The notes: generated from the sequence alone by a model not told the origin. A DNA stretch of 64,000 nucleotides from an uncultured Mycoplasmatota bacterium (GCA_946486465.1 CAMLTY010000001.1:6679-70678); one strand, 5' to 3'; positions 37,878 to 45,560 are shown, counted from the first letter of the stretch. Made by a program: numbers and translations.

Positions 37878-37932
37878 TAAAGGGATAATTTCTATGATAA
37901 ATAAATTATCATGGCGAAAGGAGAGAAGAAAA

Positions 37933-42511: not shown

Positions 42512-43243
42512 GTGTTAAATTTTATTATATGTGATGATGAAAAGGAATTTAGAGATTTAATCAAAGGTGAGATTGATAAGTTTATGATGAACTATGATAT
42601 CGATTATAAGAAATATGAATGTGAGAGTTATGAAGAAGATTTTGAAAATCTTGCTAGAAAAGAGATGGGCTTTAAAGTCTATTTCTTTGATATTAAGACG
42701 AAGAATGGTTCTGGTCTAGATGCTGCTAGATTTATAAGGGAAGAACTAGATGATTGGAATTCTATTATCATAATCGTAACTGCATTTGCCGAATATAGAT
42801 ATGAAGCATTATCTAATAGGTTATATCTATTAGACTTTATAAGTAAATTTGATAATTGTAAAACAAAGTTAAATGAAACTCTAAAGATAATTTACAAACA
42901 ATTTAACAGTAGAGAAAAGTGTCTTAGTTATGAGTATAACTATACTTTGTATAATATAGCATTAAAGAATATTATCTATATTGAAAAAGAACAAGATAGT
43001 AAAAGATGTATAATTCATACAGATTATGGAACATTTAAAGCTCCGTATACATTAAGTGCAATATCAAAAGAATTAGATAAGAGATTCTTAAAAGTACATA
43101 AGAGTCTAATTTTAAATACGGATAAAATAAGAAGTTATGATATTAAAGAAAATGAAGTGCTATTTGATAATGGTATGAGCACTAACTTAATATCTAGATC
43201 AGGTAAAAAGGAGTTGATTAATTATGTCACTAATAATCATTAA
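42512..43243 (+). CDS. agrA: AgrA-like response regulator (receiver + LytTR DNA-binding domain)
   Basis: Receiver acidic residues (ICDDE, FFDIKT); C-terminal LytTR region (FLKVHKSLILNTDKI) with AgrA/ComE-like architecture. Confidence 0.8.
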   Translation: MLNFIICDDEKEFRDLIKGEIDKFMMNYDIDYKKYECESYEEDFENLARKEMGFKVYFFDIKTKNGSGLDAARFIREELDDWNSIIIIVTAFAEYRYEALSNRLYLLDFISKFDNCKTKLNETLKIIYKQFNSREKCLSYEYNYTLYNIALKNIIYIEKEQDSKRCIIHTDYGTFKAPYTLSAISKELDKRFLKVHKSLILNTDKIRSYDIKENEVLFDNGMSTNLISRSGKKELINYVTNNH

Positions 43244-44513
43244 AGTAATAGGTTCATTAATAATGGCAATTACATCCTACTTTTCTATAAAAAATATTAT
43301 TGCACCAAATTTAAAGATAAAGAAAAGTTATGTATTATTGTCATTAATAATAATATCAATGCCAACTCTCTTAATGTATGACACTAAGTATAGTCTTCTA
43401 GTAACAGTAATTGTTTATGTATTAATGATAATAATTATTAAGTATTTATTTAATATAGAAGTAACAAATTCAATTTTAGTGTGCGGATATGTTATGCTCC
43501 TAACTGCTATAATTGATGTAACATTAACCATAGTAGAAATACCAATATTCTCATATTCTCAAGTTAGAAATATTTGGTATATAAACATAGTCAATAGTAT
43601 AATCATAGGAATTATCACAATACTCGTATCTCGCAATAAAAATACAATTAAAATATTCAAACAAATAAGTTCAAAAGTGGAGGATAGTCATAAGCTGAAA
43701 ACTGCAATTTTTACAATTTTAATTATTGGAGTTGTATGCTTATTGTATTATAATATTACCACAATATTTGAATTTAATTTACAATATACTATTACTTTTT
43801 TTAGTATAGTACTGTTCTTTATATTATACTATATCTATATGGAGGAGAGAAATAATTATCAAAAATTAAAAGATGAATACAATATAATTTTTAATTATGT
43901 TCAAACATTCGAAGATTGGATAGATAATGAACAAATGTATAGACATGAATTAAAAAACAATTTGTCTATTATTAGAAATTTGTCAAATAAAAAAGAAATA
44001 AACAAAAAAATAGATAAAATGTTACAAATGAATATGTTAATAGATGATAGTTATATAGAAATATTAAAAGATATTCCAAAAGGCGGCTTAAAAGGTCTCT
44101 TATATTATAAATTGGCACTTGCAAATAAATATAATATTGATATGTATATAGATGTTAGTCCTAAAATAAATAATAAGTTAACAAAAATAAATAAAACATT
44201 ATTAGAATCAATTTGTATAATTTTAGGTATCTATATAGACAATGCAATAGATGAATGTAAAAAGATGAAAAGGAAAAATATTACTATAGAGATATATGAG
44301 AAAGACGAAAATTTAAACATTGTTATTTCAAATACATGCAATAAAGTAATTTCAATAAAAAAGATGAACAAAAAAGGTTATACCAGTAAAGGAAAAGGGC
44401 ATGGCAATGGCCTATATTTTGCAAATAAAATCATAAAAAGAGAAAAAAGACTGAACACAGAACAACAGTTTCTAAATAATTATTTCATTCAAAAAATAAT
44501 AGTTCAAAAATAA
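43224..44513 (+). CDS. agrC: AgrC-like HPK10 sensor histidine kinase
   Basis: ~6 N-terminal TM helices; H-box YRHELKNNLSIIRNL; G-box SKGKGHGNGLYF; C-terminal blocks align with S. aureus AgrC; overlaps the regulator gene by 20 nt. Confidence 0.8.
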   Translation: MSLIIIKVIGSLIMAITSYFSIKNIIAPNLKIKKSYVLLSLIIISMPTLLMYDTKYSLLVTVIVYVLMIIIIKYLFNIEVTNSILVCGYVMLLTAIIDVTLTIVEIPIFSYSQVRNIWYINIVNSIIIGIITILVSRNKNTIKIFKQISSKVEDSHKLKTAIFTILIIGVVCLLYYNITTIFEFNLQYTITFFSIVLFFILYYIYMEERNNYQKLKDEYNIIFNYVQTFEDWIDNEQMYRHELKNNLSIIRNLSNKKEINKKIDKMLQMNMLIDDSYIEILKDIPKGGLKGLLYYKLALANKYNIDMYIDVSPKINNKLTKINKTLLESICIILGIYIDNAIDECKKMKRKNITIEIYEKDENLNIVISNTCNKVISIKKMNKKGYTSKGKGHGNGLYFANKIIKREKRLNTEQQFLNNYFIQKIIVQK

Positions 44514-44532
44514 AAAGAGTGAATATTCACTC
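44512..44532 (-). terminator. Terminator for agrBD (minus strand)
   Basis: Perfect palindrome GAGTGAATATTCACTC followed on the minus strand by TTTTTA; lies between the convergent agrC and agrD stops. Confidence 0.55.
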
Positions 44533-44545
44533 CAGCATGATAAAA

Positions 44546-44665
44546 CTAATCCATATTTTTTAGTGCATCAGGCTCATTAAGACACCACCAAACGCATCCA
44601 ATACTAGCACTTGCAGTAGCTAACATAGCAACAGCTGCTAGAACTTTAGCCATTCTTTTTTTCAT
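44546..44665 (-). CDS. agrD: AgrD-like autoinducing-peptide precursor (39 aa: MKKRMAKVLAAVAMLATASASIGCVWWCLNEPDALKNMD); absent from the ORF track
   Basis: Hand translation of the minus strand; amphipathic N-terminal leader, Cys-containing core CVWWC, then a charged tail LNEPDALKNMD with conserved Pro; sits 48 bp downstream of agrB on the same strand. Confidence 0.75.
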   Translation of the reverse strand: MKKRMAKVLAAVAMLATASASIGCVWWCLNEPDALKNMD

Positions 44666-45307: not shown

Positions 45308-45560
45308 ACCATTCCTCCTATGCTATAAACATTATATCTCTATAATATTTTAAAATATAATTTTTCCATAAAATACATAATATGAGCTTTTTAAAGATAT
45401 TTCGACATGCTTTTTCATTAAAAATACATTTTAAGGCCTCATAATAACATTTGACGGCAATTTTCTAAATATTCTTATAACAGTTGCTATAATGGACTCA
45501 CATCGTTTGAAAAGTAGTTCTAGCAAAAAAAAGGAATAAAAAGATGTGGAGGTGAGCCTA

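Follow-up and report, generated by a model that had tools for sequence, protein, structure and literature searches.

A predicted agrD gene within a complete agr-type locus of uncultured small-genome gut Bacilli, with hypervariable signal cores and a putative six-residue ring

Does a frame of just 39 codons, wedged between a membrane peptidase gene and a sensor kinase gene, encode the precursor of a cyclic signal peptide, and which peptide would be cut from it? The frame occupies positions 44546-44665 on the minus strand of the window, the whole stretch of 64,000 nucleotides that was analysed. An earlier note had read it as an unannotated AgrD pro-peptide with an amphipathic leader, a five-residue ring and an unusual core of two cysteines and two tryptophans, CVWWC. 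Re-translation confirmed the ORF. It reads MKKRMAKVLAAVAMLATASASIGCVWWCLNEPDALKNMD, followed by a stop codon, and comprises 39 aa from the assigned start. "Unannotated" was correct for the function and incorrect for the gene call, since the gene calls of the NCBI and ENA sets already include this very peptide as an unnamed product. Together with its neighbours (Table 1), the ORF is very probably the agrD of a complete agr-type quorum-sensing locus in an uncultured, small-genome lineage of gut Bacilli, acting through the pathway proposed below. The AgrD identity is well supported by genomic context, conservation and allelic covariation, all of them read from sequence. From the earlier description, the leader, the Cys-led hydrophobic core, the acidic Glu-Pro tail and the adjoining homologues of AgrB, AgrC and AgrA were retained; the amphipathic nature of the leader and the five-residue ring were not. 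The main interest of the locus lies in the very large pherotype diversity of an uncultured gut lineage and in the prediction of a six-residue ring.

Table 1. Coordinates of the agr genes, of the predicted parts of the AgrD precursor and of associated features in the window.
Feature	Position	Strand	Basis
agrA-like LytTR response regulator, 243 aa, 20-nt overlap with agrC	42512..43243	+	LytTR 3e-15; AgrA model 1.1e-11
agrC-like sensor histidine kinase (GHKL), 429 aa, convergent with agrD	43224..44513	+	HATPase_c_5 4.9e-11
Allelic hypervariable cassette, AgrD core through all of agrC	43224..44600		Nucleotide identity drop against closely related genomes
Intrinsic-terminator-like hairpin (44533..44516) and T-run 3' of agrD, between convergent agrD and agrC	44506..44533	-	Terminator search
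agrD, predicted 39-aa AIP precursor	44546..44665 including stop codon	-	Translation; downstream of agrB in 47/50 loci; TIGR04223 matches 64/65 family members
Putative follower/recognition tail, residues 30-39, NEPDALKNMD; E31, L35, M38 and D39 invariant, P32 near-invariant	44549..44578	-	Alignment columns; dN/dS 0.03
Predicted core, residues 24-29, CVWWCL: invariant Cys24 as putative nucleophile and five hypervariable hydrophobic residues	44579..44596	-	Variability; register against characterised AgrDs
Cys28 codon	44582-44584	-	
Putative leader, residues 1-23: KKR n-region, hydrophobic core VLAAVAMLATA, then A-S-A-S-x-G	44597..44665	-	Invariant or near-invariant columns, hydrophobicity, helical moment
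agrB, membrane cysteine peptidase/cyclase, 197 aa	44714..45307	-	Pfam PF04647 7.3e-32; H76 and C83 present in all 50 homologues
Two copies of CAA[A/C]TGTTAT, 33 bp apart, upstream of agrB, candidate regulator site	45444-45453, 45477-45486	-	Motif search

The gene neighbourhood identified a complete agr set by homology, with an AgrB that holds the His/Cys pair, an AgrD, a polytopic HPK10-type kinase and a LytTR regulator. The agrD ORF starts 48 nt past the agrB stop codon on the same strand. In AgrB, His76 and Cys83 are spaced as H-x6-C, like the catalytic pair H77/C84 of S. aureus. The agrC product aligned colinearly over its full length with the staphylococcal AgrC model, and the agrA product likewise matched the AgrA model over its full length, both far below the equivalog cutoffs. 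Unlike in agrBDCA, agrA-agrC is convergent with agrBD, and this synteny was fixed across the clade as hpf-csp-[agrB agrD >< agrC agrA]-GT4-mreB. ORFs of at least 120 aa in the window (positions 1-64000) lie nearly all on the plus strand, with agrB-agrD as one of the few minus-strand units. All related loci lie in MAGs of uncultured gut bacteria that carry the label Bacilli, 'Tenericutes' or Candidatus Onthousia; one of these MAGs is circular with 1.52 Mb. The hosts of these gut metagenomes were chicken, human, rabbit, mouse and the ruminants sheep and goat. Three agr loci (L029, L043 and L045) sit on short contigs in MAGs labelled Muribaculaceae (Bacteroidota); the contigs were probably mis-binned, since in synteny and sequence they agree with the Bacilli lineage. 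The literature search returned nothing on agr in this lineage, the 'Onthousia' literature included. The locus would extend agr-type peptide signalling to an uncultured lineage of small-genome gut Bacilli.

Relatives of the peptide were found by three routes. A word-indexed search detected 64 further protein clusters with 74-97% identity to the window peptide. The agrB-based scan of reference genomes recovered 50 loci, and a peptide of about 39-40 aa followed directly after agrB in 47 of them. A profile search, exhaustive over 1.84 billion representatives, returned only 36 clusters, nearly all of 39-40 aa and of the same layout. The pattern [C/S/T]-x5-[D/E/N/A/G]-E-P was matched by 111 peptides. 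A common framework was present in about 110 peptides, consisting of a signal-peptide-like leader, S-x-G, Cys, five hydrophobic residues and a [D/E]-E-P tail. In the close family of 65 sequences, L9, A11-M14, T17, A20, S21, C24, E31, L35, M38 and D39 were invariant. G23 was nearly so, and the tail positions E31, P32 and L35 were occupied in 65, 64 and 65 of the 65 sequences, respectively. The position of the ring nucleophile held Cys in all 65 close relatives and C 42, S 3 and T 2 in the 47 distant ones. Ser was found there in P0094, P0096 and P0097 and Thr in P0102 and P0110 (e.g. IGTAWWYFDEP, TGTVFWLLDEP). Both residues are alternative nucleophiles to Cys, and Ser-lactone AIPs are known; we know of no described Thr-lactone AIP. 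Positions 25-29 were hypervariable: the 65 sequences contained 35 different cores of five residues and 47 of six.

The codon analysis separated the same three parts, with strong purifying selection on leader and tail. The leader showed a dN/dS of 0.25, the core a pN of 0.46 and a dN/dS of 0.68, and the tail a pN of 0.028 and a dN/dS of 0.03, with similar synonymous divergence across leader, core and tail. The shortness of the frame and a peptide score under the curated model cutoffs are what a chance ORF in AT-rich intergenic DNA would also present. This origin was ruled out by the selection pattern and the comparative data, as it would account neither for some 110 conserved peptides nor for a tail dN/dS of 0.03 at a synonymous divergence of 0.55; its probability is negligible. 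Judged from these substitution patterns, agrD is a genuine gene under selection, and its sequence of conserved, variable and again conserved parts is the signature of AgrD. The hairpin after the agrD stop codon was present in its own version in each allele, according to sequence comparison of the alleles. Some alleles have in-frame upstream starts giving precursors of 42-47 aa (MRRM…, MKRKEVTKM…), and others were called from Met5 with 35 aa; alternative starts concerned L005:4632, L020:4643, L024:3103, L026:4615 and L027:4615 as well as P0035, P0037 and P0044.

Comparison with curated AgrD models, which the earlier note had proposed as a check, gave a divided result. TIGR04223 detected 64 of the 65 family members at E<=10, with a best E of 2.4e-6. 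The window allele itself reached 12.4 bits (E 0.13) against a curated cutoff of 19 bits and fell below it; it departs from the consensus at N30 (E30) and D33 (K33). Four of the ten close relatives tested exceeded the cutoff with 21.4-22.2 bits. The family straddles the cutoff, and automatic pipelines would therefore assign a name to only part of the alleles, with that of the window among those left unnamed. The curated AgrD models thus miss part of this family, with alleles of one gene on either side of the threshold. The Pfam AgrD model PF05931 gave no match at E<=1 for the window peptide and none at E<=10 for any of the 65 members, and the peptide is therefore not a staphylococcal-type AgrD. 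Features of the AgrD family that the window ORF does share are its small size, the same-strand adjacency to agrB, the Cys with a hydrophobic core and the Glu-Pro follower. Its tail is short, with 10 residues after the predicted cut, and lacks the second Pro that staphylococcal and clostridial tails carry. Full-text literature searches with peptide motifs such as CVWWC and EPKALKNMD returned nothing relevant.

The leader did not fit an amphipathic helix. It consists of the KKR n-region and an uninterrupted hydrophobic core, with a mean hydrophobicity of 0.72 and a helical moment of 0.18, and resembles a Sec signal. The conserved S21 and G23 flank residue 22, which is bulky and variable, and this pattern fits the -3/-1 rule of signal peptidase I. 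The S-x-G motif before Cys24 suggests that the leader is removed at Gly23|Cys24, directly before the cysteine, and that the product would carry no N-terminal extension. Extension-free thiolactone products rearrange to homodetic cyclopeptides by an S-to-N acyl shift (PMC8251862); the rearrangement to homodetic cyclopeptides is also described in PMC11297923. A small residue before an invariant cysteine is also reminiscent of a tiny lipoprotein or secreted peptide that is no substrate of AgrB, with Cys24 as the lipidated +1 residue. Gly at -1 is indeed nearly invariant, and a loose PROSITE-style lipobox rule matched 97 of the 113 family peptides. The classical lipobox [LVI]-[ASTVI]-[GAS]-C occurred in only 1 of the 113, because position -3 is Ser, and in five relatives the Cys is exchanged for Ser or Thr, which a lipobox cannot tolerate. 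On these two grounds the lipoprotein reading was rejected as highly improbable. It would also leave a mature part of only 16 residues, and it sits poorly with a gene directly downstream of agrB in 47 of 50 loci and with five residues past the Cys that are hypervariable and track AgrC.

The size of the predicted ring was approached through the register of the precursor on TIGR04223. Four characterised AgrDs with five-residue rings gave gap-free alignments that put the ring Cys on profile position 23 and E/Q-P on 29-30, which places their cut one residue before Glu/Gln. The four sequences were validated by strong TIGR04223 scores of 53, 29.9, 35.2 and 33.2 bits. The AgrDs with E/Q-P at profile positions 29-30 include those of S. 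aureus group II, Listeria and C. perfringens, the last being the best scorer with 53 bits. In the window family, E31-P32 occupies the same profile positions 29-30 and Cys24 falls on position 22, not 23; there is therefore one extra residue relative to the five-residue-ring AgrDs. The distance from C24 to E31 is +7, against +6 in the latter. The same +7 spacing occurs in C. acetobutylicum AgrD, GKCVLVTLYEP (…GKCVLVTLYEPKMPEEL…; PMC10301443 supplement). Its product is an MS-confirmed six-membered macrocycle without N-terminal extension (PMC8251862; table in PMC12312760). In the window family, the variable hydrophobic block spans exactly five residues, with a mean Kyte-Doolittle value of about +3 at positions 28 and 29 and an acidic -3.3 at position 30. 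On the basis of the register, the +7 spacing shared with C. acetobutylicum and the boundary between block and tail after position 29, a cut at Leu29|Asn30 and a six-residue ring CVWWCL are favoured over CVWWC with moderate confidence.

Some properties of the family run counter to a ring of six. Bulky hydrophobic residues or Cys occupy position 28 (L/I/M/F/V/C) in nearly every sequence, and they resemble the C-terminal residues of known AIPs. Position 29 is Ala in 19 of the 65 sequences and occasionally polar or charged (D, E, H, T, S) in distant relatives. Moreover, removal of one core residue barely shifted the TIGR04223 score of a consensus member, from 22.2 to 21.5 bits, and five residues are by far the commonest AIP ring size (PMC12312760). 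These points would suit the canonical five-residue thiolactone CVWWC of the earlier note, in which AgrB cuts at Cys28|Leu29 and the second Cys closes the ring. In such a precursor, the invariant Glu would be P3', and it is P2' in all four characterised five-residue-ring AgrDs tested. The spacing equals that of the MS-confirmed six-residue-ring precursor of C. acetobutylicum, the variable hydrophobic block ends one residue too late for this cut, after position 29, and a C-terminal Cys in an AIP is without precedent in the table of PMC12312760. With Cys at profile position 22 instead of 23 and a spacing of +7 instead of +6, the five-residue ring is the less likely reading and rather doubtful. 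The second Cys is likewise not favoured as the ring-closing residue; from the Cys-to-Glu-Pro spacing, Leu29 is predicted to close the ring. The calculated [M+H]+ values are 791.3367 for the CVWWCL ring and 678.2527 for the CVWWC ring, 1048.4743 and 935.3902 for these rings extended by S-I-G, respectively, and 789.3211 for a disulfide form. They provide synthetic targets and masses for testing the apparent rule that links spacing to the ring size of AIPs.

Variation of the locus was concentrated in a cassette that runs from the AgrD core through agrC. Against closely related genomes, nucleotide identity was 95-100% in the flanks, dropped to 48-77% across the span from AgrD core to agrC only and was back at 99% where agrC meets agrA. 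On the left side, the breakpoint falls near codon 22 of agrD. Among genomes sharing 98-100% identity with the window in their flanking proteins, AgrA was 92-97% and AgrB 91-97% identical. In the same near-identical genomes, AgrC showed 27-37% identity in the sensor half and 55-60% in the kinase half. In S. aureus, agrC varies in the sensor half only. Divergence of the kinase half as well probably arises because the convergent gene order places it between both specificity determinants.

The AgrC sensors of 28 loci fell into 9 clades when clustered at about 40% identity, and the AgrD cores were coherent within each clade. Among them are C[AGS]WW[ML]x, C[VI][LI][FW][IL][IV], CxWWC[LA], which holds the window allele, and CxW[FL]C[AV]. 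Identity of the AgrD core was 0.58 within AgrC clades and 0.27 between them, and a partial Mantel test controlling for background gave p=0.0002. Position 22, just outside the core, does not track the AgrC clades. The AgrC nearest to that of the window (L028; sensor 57%, kinase 77%) accompanies the nearest core, CIWWCLD, yet lies in a more distant genomic background. One AgrD allele was paired with one AgrC allele in three independent metagenomes. Part of the covariation of AgrD and AgrC is to be expected from physical linkage alone, which contributes to the correlation. The AgrC sensor clades match the AgrD core types, as agr specificity groups do. In the S. aureus agr groups, divergence is confined to the AgrD core and AgrC, and ligand and receptor diverge together (PMC12312760). 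The dozens of cores, and AgrC identities down to about 30% inside near-identical backgrounds, represent an extreme pherotype diversification, and the locus could be used to study the evolution of ligand-receptor specificity and strain interference in the gut. The MAG CALVRG01 (E07__bin114) contains two contigs with the same hpf-csp-agrB-agrD-agrC synteny and the cores CVWIIA (L019:2115) and CAWWMC (L024:3103); this pair probably represents two strains binned together, with two agr alleles in one sample.

Against this allelic background, the features that had appeared unusual in the window core proved ordinary in the family, as the residue counts indicate. The tryptophan pair, regarded as an oddity in the earlier note, is the family consensus, with W26 in 45/65 and W27 in 44/65 sequences. 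Position 28 held C 32, L 11, I 9, M 7, F 4 and V 2 among the 65 sequences and was never Cys in the 47 distant relatives. The two-Cys core is present as described. Its novelty was not upheld, since a two-Cys core is listed for the predicted AIP-1 of C. botulinum, ACYW[CVYQP] (PMC12312760). The loci L007 (CLWWCA) and L012 (CLWWFA) belong to one AgrC sensor clade, and Cys and Phe are therefore functionally exchangeable at position 28 in that clade. Cys28 as the true ring nucleophile was a candidate that was rejected: it is not conserved, and the conserved acidic tail then follows.

A dedicated chemistry of Cys28 was considered separately, e.g. a disulfide after the S-to-N rearrangement or an alternative thiolactone, which would give a bicyclic or redox-sensitive signal. 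The residue is frequent (32/65) and concentrated in the neighbouring AgrC clades 4, 5 and 6, and rearrangement of an extension-free product would free the thiol of Cys24, leaving two thiols in one small ring (PMC8251862). Dedicated chemistry is nonetheless improbable. Half of the close relatives have L, I, M, F or V instead, all 47 distant ones are without Cys28, and the clade of L007 and L012 exchanges Cys and Phe. The anaerobic gut habitat would disfavour disulfides, and no gene for a modifying enzyme was found in the conserved neighbourhood. The earlier suggestion that the second Cys could allow an additional linkage found no support as far as an obligatory linkage is concerned. By these comparisons, Cys28 behaves as one of the allelic variants at a hydrophobic specificity position rather than as a dedicated cross-linker. 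In a more specific form of the idea, the extension-free thiolactone would convert to homodetic cyclo(CVWWCL), and in the Cys28 alleles, about half of the total, two free thiols would form a disulfide and hence a bicyclic, redox-responsive signal; this is quite unlikely. If it were true, a disulfide-bearing Cys28 would define a receptor superclade in a gut lineage with dozens of mutually exclusive pherotypes. The two-Cys core alone currently demands no new chemistry.

The pathway proposed for the locus follows characterised agr systems by homology. The signal-peptide-like leader would bring the 39-aa precursor to the membrane. There, AgrB would cut off the conserved tail with His76/Cys83 and hold the new C-terminus as an acyl-enzyme, most likely after cleavage at Leu29|Asn30. 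The thiol of the invariant Cys24 would resolve the acyl-enzyme to a thiolactone macrocycle, the CVWWCL ring. After removal of the leader at Gly23|Cys24, the extension-free product could rearrange by an S-to-N acyl shift. The peptide would finally be sensed by the allele-matched AgrC, which would signal via the LytTR regulator.

Among known systems, C. acetobutylicum AgrD (CA_C0079; AIP [CVLVTL]) is alike in having Cys, five residues, one further residue and Glu-Pro (+7). Its agrBD and agrCA units are separate, as in the window, and its product is a six-residue extension-free ring, as predicted for the window product. Its leader is long, charged and not signal-peptide-like, with Lys before the Cys, whereas the window leader is signal-like. 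The C. acetobutylicum tail YEPKMPEEL has a second Pro; the window family is Trp-rich with a 10-residue tail. The C. acetobutylicum group is associated with a LanM-like gene (CA_C0082), and no homologue of it was found among the genes identified around the window agr (GT4, mreB, csp, hpf and secA). The likeness to this group is one of spacing alone, and no homology to it is claimed.

C. perfringens AgrD (AIP [CLWFT]) shares with the window peptide an MKK-type n-region, a hydrophobic signal-like leader, small residues before the Cys, an aromatic hydrophobic core and a Q/E-P tail. The C. perfringens sequence is validated by its 53 bits, the best score against TIGR04223. It differs in the five-residue-ring spacing (Cys to Gln +6) and in the longer tail HQPEEPKSLRDE, and the C. 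perfringens agrCA is not beside agrBD (PMC12312760). C. botulinum AgrD1 resembles the window peptide in its aromatic core and in two Cys three or four positions apart. The structure of its AIP-1 is a prediction only, spacing and tail differ, and the evidence for homology does not go beyond the AgrD family. With S. aureus agr groups I-IV, the window locus has in common a hypervariable cassette that spans the AgrD core and the AgrC sensor between conserved agr flanks. It differs in the convergent operons, in the divergence of the AgrC kinase half (55-60% identity) and in the leader, which is amphipathic in S. aureus and Sec-signal-like in the window. The diversity of the window family is also far larger than that of S. 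aureus, with 47 cores and at least 9 sensor clades among 28 loci, although these span several species-level genomes.

Searches for regulatory elements gave few candidates. The sigma-70 promoter scan performed no better than shuffled sequences (27 found, 28 expected), and no promoter is claimed for this reason. The Rfam search detected no RNAIII-like or other RNA near agr, and no equivalent of the S. aureus RNAIII was seen at this locus. The motif CAA[A/C]TGTTAT had only two matches within the 64-kb window and was partly conserved in 27 related loci. Both copies lie in the divergent intergenic region of agrB and csp and could belong to csp. The canonical spacing of LytTR direct repeats is about 21 bp. 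Since the two copies depart from it with 33 bp and csp diverges from the same region, the motif is regarded as a candidate site only. Elsewhere in the window, Rfam identified an L31-Firmicutes ribosomal protein leader (36 bits) at 37892-37923 on the plus strand. It sits at the start of the rpmE ORF, so the L31 gene is probably too long when started from the listed ATG at 37894.
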